A stretch of DNA of 64,000 bases from the NCBI GenBank assembly GCA_965215505.1, contig OZ244065.1, positions 1,536,001 through 1,600,000 of the forward strand, given 5' to 3'. A program made the position numbers and the translations under genes. This DNA is from Capsulimonadaceae bacterium. GTDB taxonomy: Bacteria; Armatimonadota; Armatimonadia; Armatimonadales; Capsulimonadaceae. Below the pieces are notes generated by a model. That model saw nothing but the letters and a program-made list of their open reading frames with translations, was not told where the DNA came from and did not search any database. This document shows positions 1,470-60,422 of the stretch, piece after piece; position 1 is the stretch's first letter, and every line of letters begins with the position of its first letter.

Positions 1470-2339
1470 GTGAAATTCCACATCGCCCATATGACGCGCT
1501 ACGAATACGACGCCCCGCTCCTGGGCGAGTGCTTCATGGAGGCACGGCTGCGCCCGCTCACCGTGCCCGGCGAGCAGGTCTGCCGCGAGTACGCGATCAC
1601 AACCGACCCGCCGGTCCCGGTCTTCGGCTACGACCAGCTCCACCAAATGGGCCTGGTCAACCACTTCGTCCTGCGCGGTGCCCCGCACCAGTCCCTGACC
1701 ATCCAGGCCGAGTCCACGGTGGAGACCCTGCGCGACAACCCGTTCGAGGGCCTGAACCTACTGGCCGAGGACTGGCCGATGCTGGCCGACCCCGCCCTGC
1801 ACGAGCAGTTCGCCGAGTTCCTAGCCCCCACCCCCCAGGTCCCCCTCTACGGGACCTGGAGCGGCCCCGAGCCGCTGCCCGGCGTCCTGGCCTACGCCCA
1901 GGCGCTCTCGGACGAGATCTACACCCAGTTCGAGTATGTGCCCGGCTCAACGGACATCACGACGCCGCTGGCCGAGTTCATCGCCGGTCGGCGCGGCGTC
2001 TGCCAGGACTACGCCCACCTGATGCTCGCCGCCGCCCGTTCGCGCGGCGTCCCCGCCCGCTACGTCAGCGGGTACATCTACGCGGGCGCGGAGGACGGCA
2101 CGAACGGGGCGGGCGCGACCCACGCCTGGGTCGAGCTGTACCTGCCCCACGCTCAGGACTGGAAGGGCTTCGACCCGACCAACAACATCCTCGTCGCCGA
2201 CCGCCACATCAAGGTAGCAGTGGGCCGCGACTACTCCGACGTGCCGCCGACCAAGGGCCTCGTGCGGGCCGCGATGGGGAGTACCCTCCCGTCGGCGACG
2301 GCGCTAAAGGTTGAGGTGCGTGTGGAGAAGATGGAATAG
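1470..2339 (+). CDS. Transglutaminase-like protein with N-terminal bacterial transglutaminase-associated domain
   Basis: GVCQDYAH (Cys), THAWVE (His), GFDPTN (Asp), VAVGRDYSDV. Confidence 0.9.
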   Translation: MKFHIAHMTRYEYDAPLLGECFMEARLRPLTVPGEQVCREYAITTDPPVPVFGYDQLHQMGLVNHFVLRGAPHQSLTIQAESTVETLRDNPFEGLNLLAEDWPMLADPALHEQFAEFLAPTPQVPLYGTWSGPEPLPGVLAYAQALSDEIYTQFEYVPGSTDITTPLAEFIAGRRGVCQDYAHLMLAAARSRGVPARYVSGYIYAGAEDGTNGAGATHAWVELYLPHAQDWKGFDPTNNILVADRHIKVAVGRDYSDVPPTKGLVRAAMGSTLPSATALKVEVRVEKME

Positions 2340-2370
2340 CAGACGGCCCGAATTAGGAGGAGACACGGAC

Positions 2371-2961
2371 GTGACTGAGGCAGAGACACGAATCCAGCAG
2401 GAACTCGTCGCCATCGTGGATGTTCTCAGCGAACTGACGGGGCTAACGTCTCGGTGGAGCGGCGAGGTCGAACTGACACAGGACCCACGGGTTTTGGGCC
2501 GCAAACCGTTCACCTGCCGTATTGTCTTGAACGAGCGCCTGGCTGACCAACCTGTGCGCTGGCGGACACTGATACATGAGGCACTACACTCGTTCTCAGC
2601 CGGGTATAACATGACTGACTACCAAGCGTTCCTCGGCTGGGAGGAAGGCGTCGTTGAACAGACTCAGCGGCTGCTCCGCCCCACTATCCTGAAAAGGCTT
2701 GGGCTTCAGATAGACGGGGCAGTCTTCGAGCCGGTCGAGACGGCTTATTCGTTCAACAAGTACATAGGAGCGCTAGAACGGCTGCGCGGCGCTTTGCAGC
2801 GCGCGGATGAACTGGCGTTCTATATCGGCCTTCTCGCCACGCAGATCAAGCAGAGGCATAACCTTCTATTCGGTGCGGGCAACCGCCTCCCGAGCAAACA
2901 GCGTGTCGTGTTCATCACCATCTTCTCGGAAGCAAATTCTGTGTTAAAAGAGGCTCCTTAA
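2371..2961 (+). CDS. Putative HEXXH zinc metallopeptidase, toxin-like, no signal peptide
   Basis: LIHEALHS followed ~20 aa later by EEGVVE; AGGAGG RBS before GTG 2371; lower GC than backbone. Confidence 0.7.
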   Translation: MTEAETRIQQELVAIVDVLSELTGLTSRWSGEVELTQDPRVLGRKPFTCRIVLNERLADQPVRWRTLIHEALHSFSAGYNMTDYQAFLGWEEGVVEQTQRLLRPTILKRLGLQIDGAVFEPVETAYSFNKYIGALERLRGALQRADELAFYIGLLATQIKQRHNLLFGAGNRLPSKQRVVFITIFSEANSVLKEAP

Positions 2962-3194
2962 TGAACTATACTGAACACCCCGAGCGCGAGCGTATATTAG
3001 ATCAGGCACTCAGAGCTAGAACGCTCTCCGAGATCGCAACGGCAGCCCGTGAGATGGACCAGTGGGTAGAGGATCATCCTGATGACTTAGGCATTTTGGA
3101 CGCCTACGAGGTGCTGGCGAACATGCAGGAGATCGCCGAGTTCCAGCAACAGGAGGAGATGAGCCACCGACCTCTTGCTGGGGCAGTTGCCTAA
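2961..3194 (+). CDS. Small acidic helical protein (77 aa), candidate partner/antitoxin of the upstream peptidase
   Basis: TAATG stop/start overlap; paralog at 4812-5042 supports coding status. Confidence 0.75.
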   Translation: MNYTEHPERERILDQALRARTLSEIATAAREMDQWVEDHPDDLGILDAYEVLANMQEIAEFQQQEEMSHRPLAGAVA

Positions 3195-3213
3195 GTCAAA
3201 CTCGCCGTCATTT

Positions 3214-3238
3214 CCGACCGCCACGTCAAGGTCGCCGT
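3214..3238 (+). repeat. Diverged copy of a 3' segment of the transglutaminase gene (2197-2221)
   Basis: CCGACCGCCACGTCAAGGTCGCCGT vs CCGACCGCCACATCAAGGTAGCAGT, 22/25 identical (DRHVKVAV vs DRHIKVAV). Confidence 0.65.
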
Positions 3239-3493
3239 TCCCAATTAGAGGTAAGCAGCATGGCGTTAATATCCTGTCCTGACTGTGCAAAAAAAATCAG
3301 TAGCTTTGCTGAATCCTGTCCAAGTTGCGGCTATCCTCTCAAACCGGCATCGTCAACGAACATCCCGAATCACCAGTTGAGGAACTGCCGAGACTGCATA
3401 CAAGGTGAAGCCAAAGACACATGTGGCGAATGCAATGGCAGTGGAACTGAGAACTGTTTTCTTTGTAATGGTGAGGGCATCATTTACAAAGAT

Positions 3494-4308
3494 GGTAGTG
3501 GTTTCATGAGTGTTGTTGGCTGGCAGCCACGCCGGGAGCCATGTGCGTGTTGTAGTGGTGCAGGAACAGCCGCAGGCAGTCCTCATGCATCACCTCCGAC
3601 TTGCTGAACGAGAGCGTCTGCCGCACGAACCGGGCGAGGCGCTGCCGCAGCGTGTTGTTGAACCGCTCGATATGATCAGTCTGGCCGCTGCCCTTGCCGC
3701 AGGCGACGTGCTGCCCCTCCGGCACCACCTTCTGGTACGCCCCCCAGAAGTCCGTGAACGTCAGCGCCTGGCGCAGCCGACGCGGGACGCGCTCCCACAG
3801 CAGGCGGCAGGTCCGCACGCCCCGGTCCCCGAGGGCGTAGGCGACGACCTGGCGCGTCCGGCGGCACAGGGCGAGCCACACCCACCGCTTGTTCTTGCGC
3901 CGTGCGACGAACGACCAGAGTTCGTCGAGTTCCAGCACGTCATCGCGTCGGACGGGGGCCAGCGTCTCGGGGAGCGGCGGTAAGTGGCGGGCTTTTTTTT
4001 AGCCAGCCGCTCAGGGTGTTCCGCCCGATGCCGAAGAGGCGGCAGACCCCGCGCATCGAGGCGCGCTCCTGGTAGGCCGCGAGGGCGCGGGCTTGGGTTT
4101 CCGCGCGCCGGGCGCGACGGCTCGCCTGCTCCTGGGCGTCCTGGAAGGTGCGGCGGCAGTCGTGGCAGCGGTAGCGCTGGCGGTCGGCTTTGTCTTTGCC
4201 GTGGCGGATGACGTTCTGGCTCTGGCAGTGGGCGCAGTGAAGGACTTGGATGACCATGTTCGGAGTCTACCCAGCGGACGAGACAACAACATCCTTGAAA
4301 CCACTACC
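3494..4308 (-). mobile_element. IS1-family insertion sequence (815 bp)
   Basis: 25-bp terminal IRs GGTAGTGGTTTCA(T/A)G..TGTTGTTG (22/25); 8-bp TSD ACAAAGAT at 3486-3493 and 4309-4316. Confidence 0.95.
3504..4257 (-). CDS. IS1 transposase (InsA/InsB, frameshift fusion)
   Basis: InsA CxxC...CxxC plus HTH (3940-4257); InsB ELDELWSFV, TDFW, HIERFNNTLRQRLARFVR (3504-3938); A8G slippery run at 3993-4000. Confidence 0.92.
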
Positions 4309-4811
4309 ACAAAGATTATTCAGATGTCACTTGCACCATGTGCAACGGAAACTCGCGCCACACATGTGGATCGTGCGCTGGACACGGCTATATCACTTGC
4401 AGATGTCAAGTGTGTGAGGGCACAGGGCAACTCACTTTTGAGGAGTTCGATGCTCTCAACAACAAAAGGCAGGAAGAAGCAAGAGAAAAAGCGGAAGCGC
4501 AGGCCCGCGTGGCCGAGCAACGACGGGCGGAAGAGCAAAAACAACAAAAACTAAAGGAAAAGAATAAAGCCCGCCTGTTGAGAGAAGAACAGATCAGAGC
4601 AAAGTGGGAAGAGACTGAACGCGCCTTGAAGGAGCAACGCATATATGAAAAACTATGCGTCGTTTGCGGAAGACCTCTAACCTTTTTCGAGAAGCTTGGT
4701 AACAAGGAATCTCACAATAAATGTCTTTGAGTTCTTCCTCTCACACTACGTTTGAGCTATACACGGGAGCATTAGAATAGGCCAGCGCTTTGTGCTGAAA
4801 GATTTCATTCC

Positions 4812-5042
4812 ATGAACTACGCGAAAGATGGCGAACGACACCGGATCGCACATCAGGCGATGCGCGCTACAACGATGGCTGAGGTCATTCACGCAACGCG
4901 CGAACTAGACCAGTGGGTAGACGGCCACCCGGACGATCTTGGCATCATAGATGCTTATGAGATACTGGAAAACATGAAGGAGATCGTCGGAGAACAGCAG
5001 GCGGAGCGCAGCCGCGAAGCAAGGACGGAAATCGCGGCTTAA
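4812..5042 (+). CDS. Small protein, paralog of 2961-3194 (orphan copy)
   Basis: 39/65 identical aa with 2961-3194, shared DQWV..HPDDLGI.DAYE motif. Confidence 0.75.
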   Translation: MNYAKDGERHRIAHQAMRATTMAEVIHATRELDQWVDGHPDDLGIIDAYEILENMKEIVGEQQAERSREARTEIAA

Positions 5043-6472: not shown

Positions 6473-6586
6473 AGCGCTCTATTATACCTGAACGCGCCGG
6501 GGCATCTCCGGGTTCCTGGGCGGAGCGGCTGCAACTTTTCCCGCCGCGCCGTGTCTCACTAGTAATAGGGAAAGAATTGATGACCG

Positions 6587-7695: not shown

Positions 7696-7699
7696 AGCC

Positions 7700-25794: not shown

Positions 25795-26899
25795 ACCGGG
25801 TATTGCGGCGGCGGGCGGTGTAACCGGCGTCCGTGATCAGCCGCTCGATCTCCTCGATGGGCACGGTGAAGACGCAGCCCGCCGTGGAAACGACGTTCTC
25901 CTCCATCATCGTGCTGCCGAAGTCATTGACCCCGTAGCGCAGCGAGAGCTGCCCGATGCGCGGCCCCTGCGTCACCCACGAGGCCTGGATGTTCGGGAAG
26001 TTGTCCAGGAAGATGCGCGAGATCGCAATGGTCCGCATGTAGTCGAAGGCCGAGGCGCGCGTCCCGCCAAGCTCCGTCCCGTCCGGCTGGTAGTTCCACG
26101 CGATGAAGGCGGTAAAGGCCGCGGGCGCACCCGCCAGCGACTCGTCCTGCAAGTCGCGCAGCTTCTGCAAATGCTCCACGCGGTCTTCCAGGGTATCCAC
26201 CGAGCCGTACATCATGGTCGCCGACGACCGCAGGCCGACCTTGTGGGCGACTCGCATGCAGTCCAGCCACTCCTCCGCTGAGTCCTTATAGGGGGCGATC
26301 CACTGCCGCACCCGGTCCGTCAGCACTTCCGCCCCGCCGCCGGGGACAGAGTGCAGGCCGGCGGCCTTGAGCCGCGTCAGGGTCTCCTCCATCGTCAGCT
26401 TGTTCAGCTTCTTGATGTAGATGATCTCGGCCGGCGAAAGGGCGTGCAGGATGACGTTCGGGAACCGCTCCATGATCGCCCGGAACAGGTCTTCGTACCA
26501 ATCTATCTTGAGCTTGGGGTTCAGACCGCCCTGCATCAGTATCTCGATGCCGCCGACGTCCACCATCTCCTGTATCTTCTGGAAAATGGTTTCGCGCGGC
26601 AGGATGTAGCCGCCCTCCGCGCCGGGGATGCGGTAAAAGTTGCAGAAGCTGCACCGGACGTAGCAGACGTTGGTGTAGTTGATGTTGCGCCCGACGATAT
26701 AGGAGACGCTGTTCTCCGGGTGCTTCTGCGTCCGCACGAAGTCGGCGAGCTGCCCTAGCTCCACGATGTTCGGGTGGTGGAACAGCCGCAGGGCGTCCGC
26801 ACCCGTGATCCTTTCGCCGGCATAGACCTTGTCGGCGATGTCGTCAATGCCGCTCACTAAGGGGGCAGCAAGTTCCAGTTCTCGTTCCAAAAGTGCCAT
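25778..26899 (-). CDS. mqnC: Cyclic dehypoxanthinyl futalosine synthase (radical SAM)
   Basis: NINYTNVCYVRCSFCNF, NIQASWVTQG, GVNDFGSTMMEENVV. Confidence 0.9.
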   Translation of the reverse strand: MALLERELELAAPLVSGIDDIADKVYAGERITGADALRLFHHPNIVELGQLADFVRTQKHPENSVSYIVGRNINYTNVCYVRCSFCNFYRIPGAEGGYILPRETIFQKIQEMVDVGGIEILMQGGLNPKLKIDWYEDLFRAIMERFPNVILHALSPAEIIYIKKLNKLTMEETLTRLKAAGLHSVPGGGAEVLTDRVRQWIAPYKDSAEEWLDCMRVAHKVGLRSSATMMYGSVDTLEDRVEHLQKLRDLQDESLAGAPAAFTAFIAWNYQPDGTELGGTRASAFDYMRTIAISRIFLDNFPNIQASWVTQGPRIGQLSLRYGVNDFGSTMMEENVVSTAGCVFTVPIEEIERLITDAGYTARRRNTRYEYVA

Positions 26900-26918
26900 C
26901 AGGAGTCACCTTTCCAGA

Positions 26919-39638: not shown

Positions 39639-40298
39639 TCAGATCTCCAGATGCACAGTCTGTGCATCCATAACTCGGACGGAAAGGTCGGTCATCACGC
39701 CCTCGCGGTGGACACGGATCGTCTGCCCCGCGCCACCGCCCTCGCGGGCCACGCCCGGCGCGGTGATGGTGAGCGGGCCGGTTTGGATGACGATGGTGAC
39801 GGGGTCACCCCGGCGGATAAGAAGGCTTGGGGGTGGCAACGGGGTCTGCGTAGGGGCGCGATTCATCGCGCCCTCTGTTCTTATCGCGCCCTCTGTTCTG
39901 CCTCCCTGTGTGGCAGGGGCAGAGGGCGCGGCAAGAGGCACCCCTACGGGAACGGCATCCTCCACCCTCGTCACCTCCGCCGCGTCCGCGCCTTCCAGCA
40001 CGGCGGCCTTGTCAGGGTCGCACCCGGCCTGCCGCAGTTTCAGGGCCAGGTCGCCGCGCGTCACGCGGCGGCTCTCGCCGGACAGGGGGGCGCGGCCGAT
40101 GGGGATGGCGGCGAGGCGCGTTCGCAGGGCCGCGCCGCCGCCGGAAACGTCGGCCACGGCCCCCAGCGTGAAGAAGCCGTCGGCATCGGCCGACACGGCG
40201 GCGGCCGGTTTCAGGGCGACGTGGACGGGACTCGAGGCGGCGGGGCAGGCCAGCGCAGCCAGCAGGAAGCCGGCGCATCGGAGGGAAGCGGTCTTCAT
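39639..40298 (-). CDS. flgA: Short FlgA-like P-ring assembly chaperone
   Basis: Position flgG-X-flgH; C-terminal IRRGDPVTI...G.AREGG..GQTIRV. Confidence 0.75.
   Translation of the reverse strand: MKTASLRCAGFLLAALACPAASSPVHVALKPAAAVSADADGFFTLGAVADVSGGGAALRTRLAAIPIGRAPLSGESRRVTRGDLALKLRQAGCDPDKAAVLEGADAAEVTRVEDAVPVGVPLAAPSAPATQGGRTEGAIRTEGAMNRAPTQTPLPPPSLLIRRGDPVTIVIQTGPLTITAPGVAREGGGAGQTIRVHREGVMTDLSVRVMDAQTVHLEI
39850..39947. repeat. Inverted REP doublet (REPIN-like) inside flgA
   Basis: GTAGGGGCGCGATTCATCGCGCCC (+, 39850-39873) and GTAGGGGTGCCTCTTGCCGCGCCC (-, 39924-39947). Confidence 0.8.
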
Positions 40299-40315
40299 GG
40301 CGCGTCTCCCCTGCC

Positions 40316-41104
40316 CTAGCGCTTGAGCTGGTTGGCGGTCTGGAGCATCTCGTCGGACGTCTGGATGGCTTTGGAGTTGACCTCGTAAGCGCGCTGGGCG
40401 GTGATCATGTTGACCATCTCCTGCACGATCTGGACGTTGGACATTTCCAGAGTGCCCTGCGCGAGCTGGCCGAAGCCGGCCTGGCCGGGCGTGCCGTCGG
40501 TCGGGGAACCGGAGGCGGGTGTCTCCTGGAAATTGTTGCCGCCGAGGTGCTTGAGGCCCGCAGGGTTGGAAAACCGCGTCAGGGTGATCTTGCCGACCGC
40601 CTCCGGGGTGTTGCTGCTGCCGCGCGTGATGTTGACCGTGCCGTCCTTGCCGATGGCGATGGAGGTGGCGTCGGCAGGGATGGTGATCTCCGGCTGGATG
40701 GCGAGGCCGTCCGAGTTGACCAGCTTGCCCTGGACGTCGCGCTTGAACGCGCCGTCGCGGGTGTAGCCATTGGTGCCGTCGGGCAGGAGGACTTTGTAGA
40801 AGCCGTCGCCCTCGATAGCGACGTCCAGGTTGTTGCCGGTCTCCTGGAGCGTCCCCTGGTCGAACATCGTCTCGGTCGAGCCGGGCTTGACGCCCAGGCC
40901 GACTTCCAGCCCGGTGGGCGTGGTCGCGCCCTGGGCGACGGTCGCGCCGGCGGGGCGCATCTCCTGGTACAGAAGATCCTGGAAGTCCGCCCGGCTCTTC
41001 TTGAAGCCGACCGTGTTGACGTTGGCGAGGTTGTTGGCGATGACGTCCATGTTGAGCTGCTGGGCCTGCATCCCGGTCGCCGCCGTGTAGAGTGAGCGCA
41101 TCAT
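40316..41104 (-). CDS. flgG: Distal rod protein FlgG
   Basis: [42 protein letters not shown]. Confidence 0.95.
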
Positions 41105-41213
41105 AGTGCGTGTTTCTCCTGATGCCCCCTCGGTCGGAGGGGGCGGGTCGTCGGCTTCCGTCAGCGGCCCGTTGAGGCGTTAGACAGTCCAGCCGTATTG
41201 TCTTATTGTCTTC

Positions 41214-41237
41214 GTAGGGGTGCGATCCATCGCGCCC
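41214..41237 (+). repeat. REP-like palindrome
   Basis: GTAGGGGTGCGATCCATCGCGCCC between flgF and flgG. Confidence 0.75.
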
Positions 41238-41260
41238 TTTTATCTATCGCGCCTGTCGCG

Positions 41261-46879: not shown

Positions 46880-47505
46880 TCCCGTTCCTCCCAGGCGGCA
46901 TCTAAGGCCGCCCGATACTCCTGCGCGGCGGCCTTCGGGTCGGCGGACCGCATGATGGGCGACAGCACGGCCACGCCCGCCGCGCCCGCTTCAACACACG
47001 CGCCCAGGTTCTCCGGCGTCACCCCGCCGATGGCGAGTACGGGGACGGAGACGGCGGCGCAGACGTCCCGCAGGAAGTCCAGCCCCGCCGGCTCGACGTC
47101 CGGGTGGCTGGGCGAGGCGAAGATGGTCCCGGCGATGATATAGTCCGCGCCCTGCGAGGCGGCTTTCAGGGCGGCCTCGACGGAGTGGGCGGACTTGCCG
47201 ACCAGCGCCCCCGACCCCAGGTGGTGGCGGATGACTCCCACCGGCGCGGACTGCTCGGGCAGGTGGATGTGGCGCGCGCCGAAGCCGACAGCCCGCTGCC
47301 AGTCCGCGTTGACGGTGACGATGGTTCCCGAACGCAGAGCCTGCCCCAACGCTTTGAACGTCAGCCTCAGCCCGTGGGCGGCGGCCCGCTTGTCCCGGAG
47401 CTGCACCACGTTGACCCCGCCCCCGACCGCCTCGCCCGCGATCTGCGGCAGGCGCGGCGACGGCTCGGTGACCAGCATCAGGCAGGGCGTCGGCAGGTTC
47501 GTCAA
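46864..47505 (-). CDS. Second ThiE/TenI-family protein
   Basis: VQLRDK, IHLPE, GKSAHS, SPSHP, AIGGV; TTG start overlapping the thiG stop. Confidence 0.8.
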
Positions 47506-48332
47506 CGCACGACGCCTTCCAGCGGGCTGCTGGCGCTGGCATAGGGCAGGACCGGCATCCTGCCCGCGAGGAACGCCCTGCGGCCCGCCTCGACGCCCAT
47601 CCGCATGGCCTCGCCCATCAGGGCGGGGTCGGCGGCGCGGGCGATGGCCGTGTTGACCAGGCAGGCCGACGCGCCCATCTCCATCGCCGCCGAGGCTTCG
47701 GAGGGGACGCCGATGCCCGCATCCACGACGACCGGGGCGGTGGCCTGCTCCAAGATGATCCGTATCTGCTCGCGCGTCTTCATCCCCTGGCCGCTGCCGA
47801 TGGGCGAGGCCAGCGGCATGACCGTGTGCGTCCCGATTTCTTGAAGGCGCAAGGCAAGGGCGGGGTCGGCGTTGATGTACGGCAGGACGACAAATCCCTC
47901 GGCCACGAGTATCTTGCACGCCTCAAAGGTGCCGATGGGGTCCGGCAGCAGGTACTTGGGGTCGGGGATGACCTCGACCTTGATCCAGTCCGACAGCCCC
48001 ATCGCCCGCGCCAGCCGCGCCGTCCGCACCGCCTCGTCGGCGGTCCGCGCCCCGGCCGTGTTGGGCAGGATGTGGTAGCGCTTCCAGTCTATCTCGTCCA
48101 GGATGCTGCGCGTCGGCGCGTCCAGGTCAATGCGTCGCAGGGCGACAGTGACGATCTCGCAGCCCGAGGACTCCAGGGCCGCGTTCATCTCCTCGGCGTT
48201 GCGGTACTTGCCCGTGCCGAGCATCAGCCGCGACCGGAAGGTCTTCCCGCCGATTGTCAGCAAGTCGTCCGGGTTCGTTTTGACAATTTCGTGTGCCTGC
48301 GCGGCAGGCGCCAGCGCCTCCATGAGTGCCAT
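47502..48332 (-). CDS. thiG: Thiazole synthase ThiG
   Basis: [38 protein letters not shown]. Confidence 0.96.
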
Positions 48333-48335: not shown

Positions 48336-48917
48336 CTACTCCTCGATACGAAAAATGTCATCCAGGGCTGGGGTCAGGTCGGGGAACGTCAGCGACTGCA
48401 CTGCTTGGCCCATCCCATACAGTGCAACCCGCTCCGGGCCGTCCGGCGTAAGACGCAGCACCTCGACGGTTTGCGCGTCTGTGTTCACGACCCAACACTC
48501 GGCAACGCCAACGGCGCAATAGTCGGTGATTTTGCCTTCGCGGATACTGCGAGTTTCGCTCGGAGATAGCACCTCCACGGCAAGTTCCGGCGCTGGGGAC
48601 AGCGGTTCTGCGCTCCGCGAGTTCCGCCCCCCATAACGTTCCCAGCCGATGAACAACACGTCAGGCTGGCGCGTCCGCAACGGCCTTCGTCCCACTAGAA
48701 CATCGCAGGGAGCAAGCATTGCTTTCCCCGCTCTGGTCCGGCGCTGATAAGCCCGGAGCAGTTCATAGATGTTGCCGACGGTGTCTTGATGCCCGTCCGT
48801 AGGCGATGCCATATAAATGCGCTCCCCATCAATGATGTCATAACGGCGGTTGATCTCACCCTCCGCCATGTAGTCCTCGTAGGTCAGCAGCCCGGTCGGG
48901 GCTTCCGCAAGAGCCAT
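48336..48917 (-). CDS. Uma2-family (DUF820) endonuclease-like protein
   Basis: IIDGE, RQPDVLF, PELAVEVLSPS, K..DY...GV.ECWVV. Confidence 0.88.
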   Translation of the reverse strand: MALAEAPTGLLTYEDYMAEGEINRRYDIIDGERIYMASPTDGHQDTVGNIYELLRAYQRRTRAGKAMLAPCDVLVGRRPLRTRQPDVLFIGWERYGGRNSRSAEPLSPAPELAVEVLSPSETRSIREGKITDYCAVGVAECWVVNTDAQTVEVLRLTPDGPERVALYGMGQAVQSLTFPDLTPALDDIFRIEE

Positions 48918-48945
48918 CGTCAGCCTCCACTTTGCTGTCGTCTCA

Positions 48946-49173
48946 TCAGGTAACTTCCGCCGTCAGCCAAACGCCATTCTTGAGCGAGCGGGCGGCGTAT
49001 TGAAACGCCGCCTCCACATCCTCCCGCGTCAGACGCGGGTACGCTTGAACGATTTCATCTCGCGAAGCGCCCGAGGCGGCAAGCTCCAGCAGGAACTCCA
49101 CGCTGAGGCGTGTGCCTTTGATGCAGGGCCAGCCGCCAAGGATGGCGGGGTCGGACACGATCCGCTTGAACAT
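48946..49173 (-). CDS. DUF433-domain antitoxin-like protein
   Basis: RIVSDPAILGGWPCIKGTRLSV...AYPRLTREDVEAA. Confidence 0.9.
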   Translation of the reverse strand: MFKRIVSDPAILGGWPCIKGTRLSVEFLLELAASGASRDEIVQAYPRLTREDVEAAFQYAARSLKNGVWLTAEVT

Positions 49174-49186
49174 CGCGGCCTCCCCC

Positions 49187-49227
49187 ACTTGTAAATCTCT
49201 CCGCCCTGTTCGCGGAACTCCTTCGCC
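49187..49227 (-). repeat. Diverged copy of the thiC 3' end (50178-50218)
   Basis: 37/41 nt identical; AKEFREQGGEIYK vs [13 protein letters not shown]. Confidence 0.9.
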
Positions 49228-49236
49228 AGCCCAGCA

Positions 49237-50154
49237 TCAAGCGGAGGCGCCGACGGTCGGGCGGTGTTCGCGCCGGAAATCTTCGCGCCGCCGCGCGATC
49301 TCTTGCTCGGACTCGCCGCCGGGCCAGGGACCGGTCCACGCTTTCGCGAAGACCCAGATCGGCGGCTCCTTCTGTTCTTCTTCTGTTTCCAGTTCCCGGC
49401 AGAACGCCTCTATCTGTGGATACTGGTCAAGATTCGTGACGTACACCCACAACTCGGTGTGGCCTGGATCGGTGCGTGTGGAGAACTGCACGACCGCGCC
49501 GGGGAATCGCGTGTTGATGGCCTGGGCAAGTGCCTCGGCCCTCTGTTTCGCGTCTGAAGTAGCCATTGTCGCCTCCAACAGAAATACCACTTTTTCTGCC
49601 GCCGTCAACAGCCTTTCGGCAAGCCCGATGTTGGAATCGGCGGCGATTCGCCAGTCCAGGCCGGTGATCGGAAAGATGCCGATGCCGCCGGTTCTTCGCG
49701 AAAGATCATAGGGCGAATAGTCGGCGACTTCGCGGTTGTCGCGCGCTTCGCTGATTTCCTTGACGATTTCCGGCATCAGCCCGGAGACGCGCTGGAAGCC
49801 AGCGTCACCCAGCAGTTTCCTGAACTGTTCGATGCTTTCCCCATGCCCATCCGGGTCCCACTGGTTGCGGCGGAGGCACATGGCACGGACGGAGTGATGC
49901 ACGGAGTAGTAGCCACGGCTGATCGCTGCCCGCAGCGCCTCGTTGCCGATCGCAGCGGCCGCAAGCGATTTGGCGACTTCCAGACAGCCTTGCGCTCGAA
50001 TCAGCCTGTCCAGACAGACGTCCTCGACCGCTTGGCGCAGCCGAGTCCGCAAATCGGCTCCGGGCCAAATCTCGGCAAGAGAATAGATCTCCCCTTTCTC
50101 CGACTGCGACAGCCGCGACACATGGATCAAGTGCCGTTTCACATCGTCCGCCAT
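49237..50154 (-). CDS. HEPN-domain protein fused to a second ~109-aa module
   Basis: AISRGYYSVHH, H in DPDGHG, REVADY (HEPN pattern); internal GGAGG-N5-ATG at 49566. Confidence 0.72.
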   Translation of the reverse strand: MADDVKRHLIHVSRLSQSEKGEIYSLAEIWPGADLRTRLRQAVEDVCLDRLIRAQGCLEVAKSLAAAAIGNEALRAAISRGYYSVHHSVRAMCLRRNQWDPDGHGESIEQFRKLLGDAGFQRVSGLMPEIVKEISEARDNREVADYSPYDLSRRTGGIGIFPITGLDWRIAADSNIGLAERLLTAAEKVVFLLEATMATSDAKQRAEALAQAINTRFPGAVVQFSTRTDPGHTELWVYVTNLDQYPQIEAFCRELETEEEQKEPPIWVFAKAWTGPWPGGESEQEIARRREDFRREHRPTVGASA

Positions 50155-50175
50155 CCCTAGCCTCCTTCACGCCGA

Positions 50176-52098
<1,923 letters not shown>

Positions 52099-52336: not shown

Positions 52337-52365
52337 ATTATAGTCGGTCCGCGCGGACCTGTCAA
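52337..52365 (-). promoter_or_regulatory. Consensus sigma70 promoter of the thi operon
   Basis: TTGACA-N17-TATAAT. Confidence 0.85.
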
Positions 52366-52387
52366 GTCAGGCGCAAAAAAGCGCCCC
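52361..52387. repeat. Boundary repeat B (second copy 54794-54821)
   Basis: GTCAAGTCAG(G)GCGCAAAAAAGCGCCCC, identical apart from one extra G. Confidence 0.85.
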
Positions 52388-53478: not shown

Positions 53479-54633
53479 CTAGCTCCGGACTGAAGGTGGG
53501 AGCAGCACCGGCTTGATGCAGTTGTCGAGTTTCGCGGAGAAGATCCGGTATCCGTCCGACACATACTCCAAAGGGATGCGGTGAGTAATCAGCGCCTTCG
53601 GGTCGAGGACGCCGCTCTGGACGTGCGCGATCAGGCGCGGGAGCAGCCGCTTCACCGAGGCCTGGTTGGCCCGGATGGTCAAGCCCTTGTTCACCACGTT
53701 CCCGATGGGGACGAGGGCGTCTATGGGGCCGTACACGCCGACGATGGAGACGACCCCGCCCTTCCGCACGGAGTTGATCGCCCAGTGGAGCGATGTGGCC
53801 GCTCCGCCCACCAGCTTCATCCCCCGGCCGAGGACCGCCTGTGCCACGCTGCCGTTTGCCTCCGCCCCCACCGCGTCGATGCAGACGTCCGCGCCAAGCC
53901 CGTCGGTCGCCTTCTTCATGAACAGCACGGGGTCGCCGATCTCCTTGAAGTTGTAGGCCTCACAGGGCGCGTAGTTCCGCACGAAGTCCAGCCGGTAATC
54001 CACCTGGTCTATCACGATGACCCGGCCCGCCCCGAAGAGCCAGGCGGACCGGGCCGCCATGATGCCCACCGGCCCGGCCCCGAAGACCGCGACCGTGTCG
54101 CCGGGCTGGATGCCGCCCATCTCGGCGGCCTGATAGCCGGTCGGCACCACGTCGGCGAGCATCACCGCGTCGTCCGGGTCCATGCCGTGGGGGATGACCG
54201 TGGGGCCGACATCCGCATAGGGGACACGGACGTACTCCGCCTGCCCGCCGTCGTAGCCGCCCGCCGTGTGCGAGTAGCCGAAGATGCCGCCGACCGCCGT
54301 GGCCTGGGGGTTGGACTCGTGGCAGTTCCCGTACAGCTCCTGCCGGCAGAAGACGCACTTCCCGCAGGCGATGTTGAACGGCACGATGACGTGGTCGCCG
54401 ACCTTCAGCTTTTGCACGTCGGGGCCGATCTGCTCCACCACGCCGGTGACCTCGTGCCCGAACGTCATCCCCACCCGCGTGTCCGGCACGGACCCGTTGT
54501 ACAGGTGCAGGTCGGACCCGCAGATGCAGGCGCGCGTCACCCGGACGATGGCGTCCTCCGGGTGCAGTATCTCCGGCATGGGTTTGTGGTCGATGCGGAC
54601 CCGCTGAGGCCCCCGGAAGTTCATCGCAAGCAT
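53479..54633 (-). CDS. Zn-dependent alcohol/formaldehyde dehydrogenase-like (MDR)
   Basis: CICGSDLH, GHE, CGKCVFC...C, GAGPVG. Confidence 0.92.
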   Translation of the reverse strand: MLAMNFRGPQRVRIDHKPMPEILHPEDAIVRVTRACICGSDLHLYNGSVPDTRVGMTFGHEVTGVVEQIGPDVQKLKVGDHVIVPFNIACGKCVFCRQELYGNCHESNPQATAVGGIFGYSHTAGGYDGGQAEYVRVPYADVGPTVIPHGMDPDDAVMLADVVPTGYQAAEMGGIQPGDTVAVFGAGPVGIMAARSAWLFGAGRVIVIDQVDYRLDFVRNYAPCEAYNFKEIGDPVLFMKKATDGLGADVCIDAVGAEANGSVAQAVLGRGMKLVGGAATSLHWAINSVRKGGVVSIVGVYGPIDALVPIGNVVNKGLTIRANQASVKRLLPRLIAHVQSGVLDPKALITHRIPLEYVSDGYRIFSAKLDNCIKPVLLPPSVRS

Positions 54634-54691
54634 GGTGGCTCCTTCTCTCATGTCCCGCCGCCCGCCGCCTTCATTGTCGCCGCGCGCCGCT

Positions 54692-54788
54692 GTCCTGCAA
54701 ATACCCACCCCACCCTGCCGCAAAACGGAGGCGGCACACAGTAACGGCATCAGCCGCCTTGCATCAGCCGCCGCAGCGCGGAGCCGGG
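54692..54788. repeat. Boundary repeat A': diverged copy of the mtlD-like 3' end plus downstream spacer (59216-59312)
   Basis: Ungapped 77/97 nt identity; PGSALRRLMQGG* vs PGSALWRLMQSH*. Confidence 0.9.
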
Positions 54789-54808
54789 GGCCCGTCAAGT
54801 CAGGGCGC

Positions 54809-54834
54809 AAAAAAGCGCCCCGATGGGGCGCTTT
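54809..54834 (-). terminator. Intrinsic terminator overlapping repeat B'
   Basis: AAAGCGCCCC-GAT-GGGGCGCTTT with T6 on minus strand. Confidence 0.7.
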
Positions 54835-54856
54835 CGCTGTTAGAAGTGCCTAGGCT

Positions 54857-54879: not shown

Positions 54880-54909
54880 TCTTTCCCTGCCCCGCCCTCC
54901 TTCCCTGCC

Positions 54910-55231
54910 TGGCCCCGTCGCTCACCAGCGCGAACTGCCCCGTGCTGTCGGTCTTGGCGACGCGCTGGCCCAAGCCATTGTAGAGGAAGGTGTCGTTCTG
55001 GCCGACGGAGTTGGTCACCGCCGTCAGCCGGTCCGCGTCGTCGAAGGTGAAGGTGTAGAAGGTGCCGTAGTAGTTCAGCCCGGTCTGGTTGCCGTTGGCG
55101 TCGTAGCCGTAAACTTCGCCCCCTGCGTTCCCGCTCGCCAGCTTGTCGTGCGCGTCGTAGACGAACGACTGGGACGGCTGGCCCCCGCTGGTCTGCGTCA
55201 GCCGGTTGCCGTTGTGGTCAAGGCTGAACTC
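54910..55231 (-). pseudogene. Orphan Rhs/YD-repeat fragment
   Basis: DHNGNRLTQT...YDAHDKL...YDANGN...FDDADRL...YNGLGQR, paralogous to ~58330-58630; no credible start and no toxin tip. Confidence 0.8.
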
Positions 55232-55284
55232 CGAGCTGGGTGCTACTAATTCGTCAAGGAATGCTGTAGTACTAGGCGTAGGTT

Positions 55285-56055
55285 TTAAGCGGATTCCTCT
55301 TGACCATCGAGCGCATCCTGCAAGTTGAGCTGTAACTCGGCGTCACCCGGAACAAAATCCAGCCCATGACGACAGGCGGACGCAGCTTCCTCATGGCGGC
55401 CCAGATCATTCAAGGTCAGGCCAAGATTATTGTATGCGTCTGCATAATCTGGCTTGATTCTGATAGCAGTTTGGTATTCGCCAACGGCTTCTTCCAACCG
55501 ATCTAGCTGCCTTAGAGCGTTTCCTAAGCTGTAATGTATGTCAGGCTCATTCGGGGCGAGGCGTAGGGCTTTGCGATAGGTCGCAACCGCCTCATGAAAC
55601 CGACCAGCCTCTTTCAACCTGACGGCCAGATTGTAGTGGTTATCAACATCCGGGTCAAGGCGAAGAGCTTCCTGGTAACAAGGGATGGCCTGGTTGAAAT
55701 CCCCCTTGGCTGCGAAGATATTTCCCATCATTTCATGCGCGAAGGCATCCTCCGGAGTCAGCCTAAGAAGCTCATGCCCTATAAGAAGCGCCTCATCCAG
55801 CTCACCATTGTCTTCCAGAGCCATGATTAACTTAGACAGAGTTAGGCTGAAATCAGGGTCTTGACGATTGGGGTCCTGATGTTCAGTGGCTTGATGTAGT
55901 GCCTCTTTGTACTCCAGGACGGCCTCCCTTATGTTGCCTTGCTCTCTGAAGTAGTCCCCTCGGTCAAAATGGTGCTGAAAGCGATTGCTGGCGTCGCTAA
56001 TCATTACATCTTTGCCTTTCACACGAACTGCCCTCACGGGGAAGCTTAAAACCAT
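55285..56055 (-). CDS. TPR-repeat protein in the immunity-gene position (start 56055 or 56004)
   Basis: Multiple TPRs (YQEALRLDP, YRKALRLAPNEP, AIRIKPDYADAYNNLG); low GC. Confidence 0.82.
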   Translation of the reverse strand: MVLSFPVRAVRVKGKDVMISDASNRFQHHFDRGDYFREQGNIREAVLEYKEALHQATEHQDPNRQDPDFSLTLSKLIMALEDNGELDEALLIGHELLRLTPEDAFAHEMMGNIFAAKGDFNQAIPCYQEALRLDPDVDNHYNLAVRLKEAGRFHEAVATYRKALRLAPNEPDIHYSLGNALRQLDRLEEAVGEYQTAIRIKPDYADAYNNLGLTLNDLGRHEEAASACRHGLDFVPGDAELQLNLQDALDGQEESA

Positions 56056-56228
56056 CCGAAGGGGTCAAACTCAGGCTCGACCGTCCCCTCGCCTTCACCC
56101 TCATACACCTCACCCTCACCCAAAGGTTGCCGATAGCCCCTCATCTTGAGCAATTCCTCCTCCCCCTCGTTCCTTTCTTGAGCCTCCCTCATACGCTTTA
56201 TGGACCCGTCAGGATCGCGAGTTGATTT
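56046..56228 (-). pseudogene. Severed C-terminal fragment, probably of the Rhs toxin
   Basis: Open frame KSTRDPDG...DPFGWF* abutting the IS end, in frame with the Rhs ORF if the IS is removed. Confidence 0.55.
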
Positions 56229-56294
56229 TGACCTTTCCCCCAAAAACTGTACCATTCGCAAGGTGAGTATTGACCCGAAAGGTAGAATACTCGA

Positions 56295-56561
56295 ATGCAG
56301 AAGAGCCAGTTCACCGACGCGCAGATCGTCGCCATCTTGCAGCAGGCCGAGAAGGGCGAACAGACTATCGCCGAAGTCTGCCGCCAGCACAACGTCTCCG
56401 AGAACAGCTTCTACCGCTGGCGCTCGCGCTTCGGCAGTGCGACCGTCAATGAAGCCGCCCGCCTGCGCGAGCTGGAAAAAGAGAACGCCCGCCTCAAGCG
56501 CCTGCTCGCCGAGCGCGACCTGGAGGTCGACATCATCAAGGAGATCCTGCAAAAAAAGTAG
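56295..56561 (+). CDS. IS3 transposase OrfA (HTH)
   Basis: FTDAQIVAIL...FYRWR...LRELEKENARLKRLLA; A7G slippery site at 56551-56558. Confidence 0.92.
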   Translation: MQKSQFTDAQIVAILQQAEKGEQTIAEVCRQHNVSENSFYRWRSRFGSATVNEAARLRELEKENARLKRLLAERDLEVDIIKEILQKK

Positions 56562-56596
56562 CCGAGGCCGCCGACCCGCTGGCCGAGGGGCGCGCG

Positions 56597-57418
56597 GTGG
56601 TCTCGCAGGCGGTGGAGCGCGGCCTCTCACAGCGCCAAGCCTGCCGCCTGGCGAAAATCTCGCGTTCCAGCGCCCGCTACCAGGCGCACCCGCGTGACGA
56701 CCAGCCGCTCCGGGAGCAGCTTGAGCGGATCAAGCGGAAGCACCCGCGCTTCGGCATCCCGCGCGCCCACGCGCTCTTGCGGGCGGGCGGCCACCTCGTC
56801 AACCGCAAGCGCGTGGAGCGCGTCTGGCGAAAGAGCGGCCTGCAAGTGCCGCAGTGCCCGAAGAAGCGCAAGGTCAGGGCGGGGCGGCGCGTGCCCTGCC
56901 AGGCGGAGCACCCCGACCACGTCTGGAGCTACGACTTCCAGGAGGACGGGCTGCTCTCTGGTCGCAAGATCCGCCTGCTGAACATCCTGGACGAGTTCAC
57001 GCGCGAGTGGCTGTCCGTGACGGTGGGCGTGTCCCTGACCAGCGGGGCAGTGCTTGCCGCCTTGAAGCCGTTGTTCGCTGTGCGCGGCGTCCCGCGCTTC
57101 GTCCGCAGCGACAACGGTCCCGAGTTCATCGCGGGCGAGGTCCAGAGCCTGCTTTCGAGCAGCGGCTCCGCGCCGCACTACATCGACCCTGGCTGCCCGT
57201 GGCAGAACGGGTTCCAGGAGAGCTTCCACGGCAAACTGCGCGACGAGTTGCTTGACCGCGAGGTCTTCGCCTCGGTTCAGGACGCCCAGGTGCGGCTGGG
57301 AGCGCATCGGCTCTGGTACAATGAGGAGCGTCCGCACAGCAGCCTGAAGTATGTGCCGCCCGCCGCGTATGCGCGGGCCTGGCAACGGGAGCAGGCGGAA
57401 AAGAAGCCGCCCGGCTAG
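56597..57418 (+). CDS. IS3 transposase OrfB (DDE)
   Basis: WSYDF, RSDNGPEF, PWQNGFQESFHG, YNEERPHSSL. Confidence 0.92.
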   Translation: MVSQAVERGLSQRQACRLAKISRSSARYQAHPRDDQPLREQLERIKRKHPRFGIPRAHALLRAGGHLVNRKRVERVWRKSGLQVPQCPKKRKVRAGRRVPCQAEHPDHVWSYDFQEDGLLSGRKIRLLNILDEFTREWLSVTVGVSLTSGAVLAALKPLFAVRGVPRFVRSDNGPEFIAGEVQSLLSSSGSAPHYIDPGCPWQNGFQESFHGKLRDELLDREVFASVQDAQVRLGAHRLWYNEERPHSSLKYVPPAAYARAWQREQAEKKPPG

Positions 57419-57469
57419 ACAACAGAAGCGCTCACTCTGCCCGTGGTGCATAAAACGGGGGAAACGTCA

Positions 57470-59224
57470 CATTCCTGCCGCGATCTCACCAAACTTGAGA
57501 TTGAGACGTAGCCCGGCTAGCATGGCCCCAAATCCATAATCGCCTAAAACATCGTAAGCATGATACAAGGGGTTTTTCCCTAAGCCGACCAGCCTGTTTT
57601 TCGGATCGCCACTTGATGTCGGATGAAAATGGGTGTAGGCATACCGCACTTTGTCAGCAAAAGTGGGCATTATCTTGAAGGACGCAGAGCCAATGTGGAA
57701 TGAGAATAGAGGGGTGTTTGCGAAATTCCGCGCCGCATTGAAGCTGTTAGTCACATTGTAGCCAGTGATGTTGTGACTCATGCTAACTTGTGAGCCGACC
57801 GTGAACTGGAAGAGGACATTCCCGTTTTTGTCGGTCTCTTTGTAGACATCACCAACCTCGGTGTTCGGGTCTGACATCACACGGTTGACTATGTCCGTCT
57901 CCGACATGCCACTTGAGTTGAAGGGCGCGCATACTAAGCCACTGGGATCAGACCGATTCAAGGGACTGTTGCCGCAGTAGGCGTACCAGTTGTTCCCCGC
58001 CTCCACCGGGTCCTGAGAGATGAACCGCCCCGTCCGGCTGTCATAGTACCGATGCCCCAGCAGCTTCAAGCCGCTGTCCCCGTCCGACTGATACCCCGCC
58101 TCCCCGTTCCACGCAAAAGCCGTCGGGTTGTTCCCGAACCGGCTCACGCTGTTGCCGAAGGCGTCCCAGTTATACCCGTCCGTCGCACTCTGCCCGCCGT
58201 CCAGCAGGCCCCGGCTGTTGCCCTGCGCGTCCGCGACGTAGAACCGGCTCCCCAGGGCGTTGTACTCGCTGATGCCCGGCGTGAACGTCGTGTGCGCGTC
58301 CGAAAGCACGTCCGAGGCGGGGGAAACGCCGTCGGCCAGGTACGAGTAGCTGCCCGTCGGGTCGCTCTTGGACAGACGCATCCCCACACCCGTGTACCCG
58401 TAGCTGTCGCCGTGGCCGTCGGGGAACTGCTGGCTGACCAGCCGGTCCTCGTCGTCCCACACGAAGGTCGTCGTCTGCCCGTTCACCGTCTGCGAGATCA
58501 GGTTCCCGTTCGGGTCGTAGCCCTCGCTCTCGTTCAGGCCCCCCGTCAGCTTGTCGTGCGCGTCGTAGCTGAACTGCTGCACCAAGGCCCCGTTCACCGT
58601 CTGCGTCAGCCGGTTGCCGTTGTGGTCGTAGCTGTACTCGTGGTCGAAGGCCACCGGACCCGTCCGCACCTCCGAAAGAAGCTGGTTCATCCCGTCATAC
58701 AGGAACGTGTTCACGCCCCCGTCGCTCTCCGAGCGCGACGCCAGGCTGCCGGCGGGCGTGTAGGTGTAGTGGTGGCTGTACGAGCCGCCCACAGCCGGGT
58801 AGCCGAACTGGAGGTCCTTCAGCAGCCCGCTCAGGGGGTCGTATCCGTAGCTGATCGTCGCGCTGTTCCCCAGCGTCTTCTGCCGCACCGTCCCGTCGTC
58901 GTTGTAGGCGAACGTGGTCGTCTCCCCGAACGGGTTCTGGAGGGTATACAGCCGGTCGCCCGCGTCATAGACGTAGGTGTAGGCAGCCATCGAGTTGGAC
59001 GGGTTGAGGCCCGGTGCCCTCATGGTCTTGCGCTCCCCGCCCGCGTAGTAGGAGTAGTACACATCCCCCCGGCCGCTGTTGAGGTGCGTCAGGTGCAGCC
59101 CGTCGTCATAGTACCAGGTCGTCGTCCCGTTCCCGTTCGCGTCGTAGCCGTTCGTCGGGGTCGTGCCGATGCTCTCGCTCGTGCCGTCCTGGTAGGCGGC
59201 TCGTTGCGGGCCATCGTCTTGCAA
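57470..59224 (-). pseudogene. N-terminally truncated Rhs core with toxin tip, cut by IS3
   Basis: YD repeats, RYYDSRTGRFISQDP, N.YAYCGNSP...DPSGL; GC drop after the core. Confidence 0.85.
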
Positions 59225-59273
59225 GTACCCAGCCTACCGCGCCGCAAAACGGGGACGGCACCTACCGCCGGCA

Positions 59274-60422
59274 TCAGTGGCTTTGCATCAGCCGCCACAA
59301 TGCGGAGCCGGGCGCGATGCCGGTCACGGCTTCCAGGGCGGCGTCATCCCCCTCTTTCTGCCTTCGGGCCTGTAGCTCCTGCGCGCTCGGGTCATCGGGG
59401 GCATCGTAGTGGAACGCGGCTTGGATGACCTGTGCCAGCGCGTCCGGGGCGATGGAGTGTTTGAGGCAAAGGGCGGCAGCCCCGACGAGCCGGTCGTCGG
59501 GCCGGAGTTTGCGGAGCGGGTCGGCGGCGACGCGGGCGACGGTGTCGCCGAGGGCGCGGCAAGCGAAGCGGCGCAGGAGGTCGTCGGCGAAAGCCGTGAG
59601 GTCGGCCCGCGACAGCCCGTACTCGGCGATCAGGGCCGATACGGCTTCGGCCAGGGCGGCGCGGCAGACGGCGGAGACGGCCGGGTCGGCGGCGCACTGC
59701 CAGATGAACTCGTGGCCGCGCGCATGGCCCAGGTAGGCCAGGGCGGCGTGGCTCATGTTGTGGACGTAGAGCTTGCGCGCCTCATACGCTTCAAAGTCGG
59801 CGGCCAGAATCAGGCCGGGCAGGGCGGGCGGGTCCGAGCGGAGCATGGCCCGCGCGATGGGCAGTTCTTTGTACGGCTCGGCGACGACCAGCAGCGGGTC
59901 CTCGGCGCGCTGCTGGTCGGTGGCCATCGGGACCATGCGCCCGATGACGGTCTCGACCAGGCCGACCCGCGTGTCGAAATACGCCCGCGCCTCGGGGGCG
60001 ATGTGTGGGAGGAGCAGGCCGCGCACCGTGGCGGCGGCGTGCCACTGGTTCTCGCACAGCAGGATGTCAAGGGGGCCACTGTTGGCTGCCGCGCGGGCGT
60101 TGATGCCGGCGGCCAGGGCGGGCGCGACGCGGGGCAGGATGCTGACGCCGACGGCGACGCTGACGAGGTCCGCCCCGGTGACCGCCCGCGTGACTGCGTC
60201 GGCGTCCCGCCGGGCGTCCAAAGCGCGCAGGCGGCCCATAGACAAATCCCGCGTCCCGGCATCAGACACCAGGCGCAGCGGGTACGCACCGCGCGCGCTC
60301 AGGGCGTCCACCAGGGCCGTGTCGGTGTCCACGAACGTCGTATGGTAGCCGGCCTCGAACAGCAGTTGGCCGAGGAAGCCGCGCCCGATCTTGCCCGCAC
60401 CGAACTGGACGGCCTCTCTCAT
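59274..60422 (-). CDS. mtlD: Mannitol-1-phosphate 5-dehydrogenase-like protein
   Basis: QFGAGKIGRGF, LLCEN, IGRMVP, RKLYVHNMSHA, DPLRKL...DRL. Confidence 0.82.
   Translation of the reverse strand: MREAVQFGAGKIGRGFLGQLLFEAGYHTTFVDTDTALVDALSARGAYPLRLVSDAGTRDLSMGRLRALDARRDADAVTRAVTGADLVSVAVGVSILPRVAPALAAGINARAAANSGPLDILLCENQWHAAATVRGLLLPHIAPEARAYFDTRVGLVETVIGRMVPMATDQQRAEDPLLVVAEPYKELPIARAMLRSDPPALPGLILAADFEAYEARKLYVHNMSHAALAYLGHARGHEFIWQCAADPAVSAVCRAALAEAVSALIAEYGLSRADLTAFADDLLRRFACRALGDTVARVAADPLRKLRPDDRLVGAAALCLKHSIAPDALAQVIQAAFHYDAPDDPSAQELQARRQKEGDDAALEAVTGIAPGSALWRLMQSH

Follow-up and report, generated by a model that had tools for sequence, protein, structure and literature searches.

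How do genes come to lie behind conserved housekeeping genes when nothing beside them encodes an integrase, and why should a diverged copy of the host gene's own 3' end lie beyond them? This question is raised by a 64,000-nt stretch of the genome of a Capsulimonadaceae bacterium (contig OZ244065.1, positions 1,536,001 to 1,600,000; G000:C1:1536001-1600000), hereafter the window, in which a first-pass annotation had reported three loci with the order host gene, cargo, copy of the host 3' end, further cargo. We call the second copy a scar and the interval behind the host gene a slot. The source genome, G000, is a single 6.18-Mb contig of 66.5% G+C from the Armatimonadota; other G-numbers denote the related genomes compared with it. 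Domain assignments are from Pfam, window repeats are from a self-BLAST of the window, and coordinates are window positions unless marked as genome positions. Overall, our comparisons of sequence make it an even call that the cargo represents old, integrase-free insertions of foreign genes by RecA-type homologous integration anchored in conserved gene ends.

Two gene-end repeats of the window are unique

Two of the three reported repeat pairs proved real. Pair ii, behind thiC (50178-50218 versus 49187-49227), is 37/41 identical with an E-value of 4e-8; read directly, it is about 51 nt long, with a 9-nt in-frame deletion and a stop codon changed from TAG to TGG in the scar. Pair iii, behind a mannitol-dehydrogenase-family (mtlD-like) gene (59216-59312 versus 54692-54788), is 77/97 identical with an E-value of 1e-12, the best off-diagonal match of the window. 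In a local alignment the match grows to about 130 nt (59201-59330 versus 54677-54806), comprising the last ~55 coding nt of the gene, its stop codon and ~73 nt of spacer. Both are unique pairs, with no further copy in the 6.18-Mb genome.

The first-pass annotation had named a chimeric assembly of strains as a danger to its reading. At the thiC junctions, contigs from runs of two studies cover 48975-50272 with 0-2 differences: contigs of X21 and X22 (0 differences) and a contig of X24 (another study; 2 differences; 48975-50299) all run through a DUF433 gene, the scar, a HEPN-domain gene and the thiC end, bridging the junctions in question. The thiC-HEPN-scar junction also recurs in G031, which was assembled independently. 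That chance matches, paralogy or assembly chimeras explain the repeats is therefore highly improbable, given also the E-values, the uniqueness of pairs ii and iii in the genome, and scars that lie in frame with the host gene end; what fits a chance match is the third pair, discussed below. Other contigs of X22 and X24 (48917-50177) join the thiC end straight to the start of a Uma2-like gene or to the scar and DUF433. These are short and of low depth, with 23-35 nt on the shorter side of the joint and 90% likeness, and we did not use them as evidence of excision, as they probably derive from other strains; related strains with other thiC-slot contents probably co-occur in the X22 and X24 samples.

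Pair i (2197-2221 versus 3214-3238, plus strand) matches at 22 of 25 positions, as reported, and its BLAST core of 18/19 has an E-value of 1.4 and stands among dozens of equal matches. Eleven direct matches of at least 22/25 at distances of 200-5000 nt were found in the window, mostly paralogues or RHS/WD40 repeats; eight codon-shuffled windows gave one or two each (mean 1.25) and three Markov-1 windows gave none. The upstream copy sits 118-142 nt before the stop codon of the transglutaminase-like gene (1470..2339, plus strand; Transglut_core), and the match was not lengthened on aligning the native 3' ends of G015 and G009 to 2340-5040. We rejected pair i as a 3'-end scar on these three grounds: chance-level frequency, position before the stop and lack of extension. 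The slot itself is variable. From the transglutaminase gene to the convergent radical-SAM gene there are 52-62 nt in G015 and G009, where the slot is empty, and ~2.7 kb in G000; the locus in G011 is collinear with that of G000 save for an IS1-family element (3479..4310, minus strand; InsA 3940-4257, InsB 3504-3938) missing from G011. Elsewhere in the window, direct repeats of 22-47 nt, ~1.2-1.4 kb apart, at 26016-27915 and 39844-41253 are probably tandem paralogous genes.

The thiC-thiG slot has nested contents

Slot ii lies on the minus strand between thiC (50176..52083; ThiC_Rad_SAM, 1e-185) and thiG (47502..48332; ThiG, 4e-106), which is followed by thiE and thiO. From the resident thiC 3' end, whose direct repeat spans 50176..50239 by self-match and direct reading, a 21-nt spacer with a ribosome-binding site (RBS) leads to the first cargo gene (49237..50154), which encodes a 305-aa protein comprising a HEPN domain fused to a ~110-aa partner. 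The scar (49185..49235; nhmmer E 2.6e-10) begins 1 nt after the HEPN stop codon. It is a decaying copy of the thiC 3' end, encodes AGLA, then the deletion, then KEFREQGGEIYKW, and stands directly before the RBS of a DUF433 antitoxin-like gene (48946..49188; 5e-24) with a likely ATG near 49173 and no DUF5615 partner. Beyond it, adjoining thiG, is a Uma2-family nuclease-like gene (48336..48917; Uma2, 4e-26).

We compared this slot in the eight relatives in which a single contig holds both the end of thiC and the start of thiG. It is empty in three (G014, G001 and G004; gap 73-98 nt) and differently filled in the other five: one Uma2-like gene in G009 and G002, two in G006, two together with an IS1-like element in G015, and the series DUF433-DUF5615-DUF6308-Uma2 in G012. 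In G012 the thiC stop and spacer pass into DUF433 just as the G000 scar does. Because these two joins match, the HEPN gene is the latest arrival and the scar is the old thiC end still attached to DUF433. The junction from thiC through HEPN and scar to DUF433 in G031 matches that of G000 at 90% identity, with a scar of 72 nt and a Uma2 3' fragment on the same contig. There the HEPN homologue, 88% identical, is interrupted by a TAG codon and so forms two ORFs: a HEPN protein of 199 aa and, with an RBS of its own, a partner of 109 aa. Across the genomes the contents are nested: Uma2 adjoins thiG in six (G000, G012, G015, G009, G006 and G002), DUF433 is found in three and HEPN in two. This distribution fits entry next to thiC, with older cargo displaced outward, which would make DUF433 the older and Uma2 the oldest cargo of the slot.

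The starts of the Uma2 and thiG genes (window positions 48917 and 48332) are alike over the first ~17 nt. Uma2 genes in the slot begin MA(V/L)(L/A)EAE, and an unusual N-terminal extension of thiG in this genus begins MA(L/I/V)(M/S)EA; a similar start is found in about three of eight other Uma2-like genes of G000. The likeness may have arisen by duplication of a short 5' end or by capture of the start of a Uma2 gene. The thiC-thiG gap of G001 contains a 21-nt tandem duplication that takes in the thiG RBS and start.

Gene-end scars are in excess across the genome

A census of G000 used 5218 genes called by a codon log-odds ORF picker. Self-BLAST in 24-kb chunks collected direct pairs of 30-400 nt with E<=1e-4 and copies 150 nt to 12 kb apart, leaving out paralogous pairs, whose two copies both fall on the same kind of gene end. 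Scar loci have the form of a host gene, cargo of low codon score and an intergenic copy of the host 3' end. Twenty pairs joined a 3' end including the stop codon to a downstream copy, the second copy being intergenic in 15, within a gene in four and on a 5' end in one. The mirror class, a 5' end with an upstream intergenic copy, numbered six, and the two wrong-side classes three each. The probability of at least 15 of 27 at p=0.25 is 7e-4, and the genome-wide excess of 3'-end scars that the first-pass annotation had called for is thus borne out (15 versus 6, 3 and 3).

Hosts include thiC, the mtlD-like gene, uvrB, ftsK, smc, a DinG-like helicase, sulfite reductase and an ABC transporter, among others. 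Their repeats vary in length from 39 to 158 nt and are 79-95% identical. The cargo has a median codon score of 0.28 versus 0.35 for all genes (Mann-Whitney U test, p 0.003) and includes DUF3800, PIN/Phd, C5 methylase with a partner, HEPN and RHS genes. Since SodA, TetR/ADH and TldD/PmbA are also found among it, only about half of the cargo is of the toxin-antitoxin (TA) or conflict type to which most had been assigned. The proposal that cargo occupies slots behind conserved genes agrees with the relatives, in which the slots behind thiC, the mtlD-like gene, the transglutaminase gene of locus i and smc are empty or differently filled. Searches of PMC and bioRxiv found no description of natural gene-end duplications beside integrase-free cargo, which does not show that none is in print.

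Gene-end repeats recur behind smc in related genomes

At least one extra, downstream smc end is present on the same contig in eight of 24 genomes of the genus (G000, G001, G007, G008, G013, G015, G017 and G035), and on another contig in G031. A homologue search with the HEPN protein of the thiC slot found one close relative only. Distant homologues of the HEPN pair (46% amino acid identity) lie behind smc in G017, G013 and G008, flanked by smc-end repeats of 41, 41 and 80 nt, respectively. The same gene family is found behind thiC (G000, G031) and behind smc (G017, G013, G008), each time flanked by repeats of its own host's 3' end. The homologues in G017, G013 and G008 also consist of two ORFs, with a partner without a Pfam family.

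In G035, smc is followed by a 317-aa ORF, a C5 methylase, a 118-nt scar (94%), a ParE-toxin block and a 122-nt scar (92%). The cassette stacking proposed by the first-pass annotation is thus seen directly behind smc in G035; the thiC slots are less telling, as a thiC-end profile run over ten of them detected a single scar each in G000 and G031 and nothing beside DUF433, Uma2 or other cargo.

The smc repeats bear on two alternatives to RecA-type integration. One holds that the repeats are attL and attR of site-specific elements whose attP mimics the gene 3' end, the integrase having decayed or acting in trans on cassettes that lack one, in the manner of cis-mobilisable elements or of stacked, degenerate tycheposons. 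We consider this rather unlikely, though it deserves serious attention. Islands that carry an integrase are classically recognized by direct repeats derived from the target's 3' end, and just such repeats are found here; for tycheposons, integrations stacked one behind another with remnants of partial targets have been described (bioRxiv 10.1101/2020.12.28.424599). In G035 the boundaries of the two scars nearly coincide, and boundaries recur likewise in G001 and G008. Resident and scar copies of smc also have a sharply bounded common core followed by unlike tails. On the other side, the starts of the smc repeats, read from coordinates, vary across genomes (about -158, -131, -109, -90, -64 and -54 nt from the stop), while all of the repeats overlap the conserved GMQVP block.

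The other alternative is strict homology-facilitated illegitimate recombination (HFIR), in which linear DNA of a relative pairs at one end with the host gene as its anchor and is joined illegitimately at the other, within the gene end of the recipient, leaving the resident copy as the donor allele and the scar as the recipient's. The tails that follow GMQVP lend it some support. The resident copy in G017 ends in AAS* and its scar in TTN*; in G013 the resident ends in TAN* and the scar in AATA*; and the nearest relative, G016, ends in TASS*. The resident tail of G017 is unlike those of its nearest relatives and foreign to the clade, and the resident and scar tails appear swapped between G017 and G013, which suggests transfer between lineages. 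The smc tails and downstream regions are, in general, variable among relatives. HFIR could also account for the position of the repeats, since in tight operons only joins inside a redundant gene end spare the RBS of the next gene, but the recurrence of identical repeat boundaries is unexpected from independent illegitimate joins. With the evidence from G000 that follows, we regard strict HFIR as improbable.

Most differences between resident and scar lie on the scar lineage

The first-pass annotation read the scars as alleles from related strains, from the synonymous nature of many mismatches. The 14 ungapped scars contain 93 coding mismatches, of which 17, 19 and 57 fall at codon positions 1, 2 and 3, respectively. 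We do not take this bias as decisive proof of allelic origin: by a rough, uncomputed estimate, synonymous change in the resident together with GC-biased decay of the scar gives about half at position 3. We then polarised the differences between scar and resident in uvrB, ftsK, smc and thiC, using relatives as outgroups. Of 34 differences, 22 lie on the scar lineage, nine on the resident lineage and three are ambiguous; the resident-lineage changes in uvrB are synonymous, third-position changes. Relatives fit the resident copy better than the scar, the reverse of what the first-pass annotation had predicted, which speaks against scars of this genome being alleles from other strains and also against HFIR, whose donor allele would be the resident. 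Likewise, sliding identity of G000 uvrB to G011, G031 and G012 reveals no clear foreign tract or drop at the 3' end (the G015 row, misaligned by indels, was left out).

The thiC scars of G000 and G031 differ at 12 of 48 common nt (~75% alike, counted by eye) while their flanking genes are 90% alike, so that neutral decay accounts for the ~10% divergence between scars and residents. The stop codon, read from sequence pairs, differs in five scars, of which four still carry a stop. This retention is suggestive, a hint only, as the changes may lie on the resident lineage.

The mtlD-like slot

Slot iii is organized like slot ii, with its genes on the minus strand. The mtlD-like host (59274..61178; Mannitol_dh and Mannitol_dh_C; start uncertain) ends in the resident direct repeat (59201..59330, by alignment), which takes in the gene end, the stop and the spacer up to the start of an RHS-repeat gene (57467..59224; RHS_repeat). 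The 3' side of this gene is cut by an IS3-family insertion sequence of 1244 bp on the plus strand (56226..57469; HTH_Tnp_1 and rve), which has two 100% identical copies in the genome (genome positions 729611-730854 and 5580999-5582239) and one at 84%. Further cargo comprises a TPR-repeat gene (55285..56022; Pfam TPR families) and an RHS-like gene fragment (54913..55219), which is 67% identical to an RHS-like gene of G012 and shares short repeats with 58478-58636. A terminator-like hairpin with a T-run, recognized by sequence reading (54794..54821), marks the end of this cargo just before the scar. A second copy of the hairpin lies at 52361-52387 (27/28 identical), such that the pair ends two neighbouring cargo blocks.

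The scar (54677..54806, by alignment) carries the mtlD-like 3' end (APGSALRRLMQGG*) and spacer, and is followed by an older cargo gene, a zinc alcohol dehydrogenase (53479..54624; ADH_N and ADH_zinc_N). Since this gene is 85-86% identical to its counterparts in G012 and in two genomes of another family (G029 and G030; 85% at the DNA level), it was itself acquired; the homology to G029 and G030 starts at the RBS, and the sequence comparison looks like recent horizontal transfer. Behind the mtlD-like host, G012, G015 and G007 each have a different next gene, and G011 has other sequence. In G011 a 14-nt tandem repeat array follows the gene to the contig end.

Recombinases and junctions

No integrase or recombinase Pfam match was found in the cargo of the window loci, of 13 other loci or of the smc slots of G035, G015, G001 and G007, and this count includes the 15 cargo regions of the census. 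G000 encodes only five PF00589 tyrosine recombinases, none beside 14 of the 15 scar loci and the closest of them ~10 kb away from one locus; this genome-wide search covered tyrosine but not serine recombinases. Site-specific integration would moreover have to supply as many specificities as there are target genes, at least 15. Nor do the junctions reveal a common motif: the 15 left and 15 right junctions share 17 and 7 7-mers, respectively, within the null expectation (mean 14.1, 95th percentile 23), and junction k-mers disclose no attC-like site common to the cassettes (hairpin folding was not examined).

The reported absence of recombinases from every site holds for integrases in cargo and needs amending for transposases, given the IS1 element at locus i and the IS3-family element at locus iii. 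Each seems to be a later insertion that has nothing to do with the scar mechanism. Transposon target-site duplications are usually 2-14 bp long. The repeats here, at 39-158 nt and of variable length, are not of that kind, and the cargo contains no transposase bar the unrelated IS3-family copy.

ComEC, a point in favour of HFIR and of uptake by transformation, is present in G000. The dprA gene (DNA_processg_A) is found in two halves ~17 kb apart (genome positions 607903-608226 and 625395-625706), apparently split by a phage-like insert with DnaB/DUF3987, Mu Gam and CsrA genes that also holds scar locus 3. A tyrosine recombinase lies past the second half, at genome positions 631484-632011.

A proposed recombination model for cassette entry

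RecA-type integration is favoured because the structure is that of a textbook single-crossover product, because there is laboratory precedent, and because hotspots free of mobile genetic elements (MGEs) are known. As expected of Campbell-type integration, each repeat is a continuous stretch of the native gene, in direct orientation, with one intact and one truncated copy, and polarisation indicates that both copies derive from native-like sequence. In E. coli, one-sided homology yielded single crossovers of circular DNA in 56 of 60 recombinants and HFIR in four, and in 14 sequenced single-crossover recombinants 109-950 bp of the gene end was duplicated (PMC3240628). In the same report HFIR insertions are coupled with deletions, and they are rarer than single crossover with duplication (4 versus 56 of 60). 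Transformation can also insert DNA via alternative pairing of a repeat on sister chromatids (PMC3784515), and there are documented hotspots that lack mobile-element genes and whose flanking core genes show raised recombination (PMC5635113).

We propose that incoming DNA would consist of cargo joined to ~40-160 nt taken from the conserved 3' end of the host gene. The donor could be a non-replicating circle that integrates by a single Campbell-type crossover, or a linear piece with a long arm in the host gene and a short arm that becomes the scar. The product would be an intact host gene, the cargo and a second, useless gene-end copy that decays neutrally. Selection would retain such scars, since only pieces with a gene end leave the gene intact. 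The unit of gene end, cargo and scar might then loop out or be copied into relatives with the same gene, and fresh cargo would enter beside the gene and shift older cargo outward. RecA dependence, the form of the donor (circular or linear) and the route of DNA entry are what we infer from the products. The first-pass annotation had offered transformation with HFIR, or a recombinase acting in trans; this comes near the RecA-type reading.

Several observations weigh against RecA-type integration at conserved gene ends. The material is assembled contigs, and these reveal neither a donor molecule nor a circle or excision product. At 40-160 nt, the arms approach the shortest lengths at which RecA recombines DNA efficiently. 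Most thiC-slot cargo in relatives has no scar, and integration by this route is therefore not the only one. A fixed att-like site would give the same near-identical boundaries as those shared by the two scars of G035 and found likewise in G001 and G008. Resident copies in G000 look native, so they do not demonstrate that a foreign gene end was imported. Finally, the split of dprA by the ~17-kb insert makes present-day natural transformation doubtful.

A bolder idea, which we think improbable, is that the scar is the working part: the cassette would be a recombinase-free mobile unit with the scar as a second homology arm that travels with it, or as the site where an excised circle crosses over, or else a trans-acting system of an unrecognised kind would act on conserved 3' coding blocks. 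If scars do double as arms for homologous pairing, cassettes of a few defence or toxin genes could move without encoding mobility, and selfish TA, restriction-modification (R-M) and polymorphic-toxin cassettes could spread by RecA alone among genomes that have the host gene. They would stack by arrival into distributed mini-arrays, as behind smc in G035. Searches for cassettes would then target gene-end scars rather than integrases, and the scars would be a datable record of arrival order.

Relation to known systems

The closest laboratory counterpart is Campbell-type integration in E. coli (Amarir-Bouhram et al, 2011; PMC3240628), which likewise leaves an intact gene, the insert and a duplicated partial end without a dedicated recombinase, the repeat length being that of the homologous piece. 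The events described here differ in that they are natural and, at 79-95% identity, old; their repeats measure 39-158 nt versus 109-950 bp in that laboratory work; TA, R-M or polymorphic-toxin genes are among the cargo, many host genes are used across a genus, and the donor form is inferred. HFIR also has a one-sided homologous anchor in a conserved gene, adjoining foreign DNA and no recombinase, but it typically brings deletion rather than duplication (PMC3240628), and illegitimate joins would not repeat boundaries.

Integrase-borne islands such as tycheposons (bioRxiv 10.1101/2020.12.28.424599) share partial targets that flank cargo, newcomers that displace older elements, and leftovers that mark older events. 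As described there, they use tyrosine recombinases and tRNA targets, whereas here we find no integrases, many protein-gene ends and varying boundaries. Integron arrays are similar in that their units are small, hold one gene each, often lack a promoter, follow the order of arrival and are rich in toxin-antitoxin genes; the loci described here have no attC-like common junction and no adjacent integron integrase, and are scattered slots instead of one platform.

MGE-free hotspots, or minimal mobile elements (Oliveira et al, 2017; PMC5635113), are likewise variable genes between conserved core genes without integrases, with homologous recombination in the flanks as the proposed driver. A double crossover leaves no duplication, whereas the present loci carry one flank twice, and its extra copy may itself serve as a second arm. 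Such hotspots are common and the entry of their DNA is mostly inferred; here footprints of entry remain at 15 loci in G000 and in many of its relatives, which suggests that recombination took hold in 3' coding blocks of high conservation (smc, uvrB, ftsK, thiC). To judge from these sequence comparisons, the slots would belong to the known class of integrase-free hotspots, to which they appear to add readable scars of entry.

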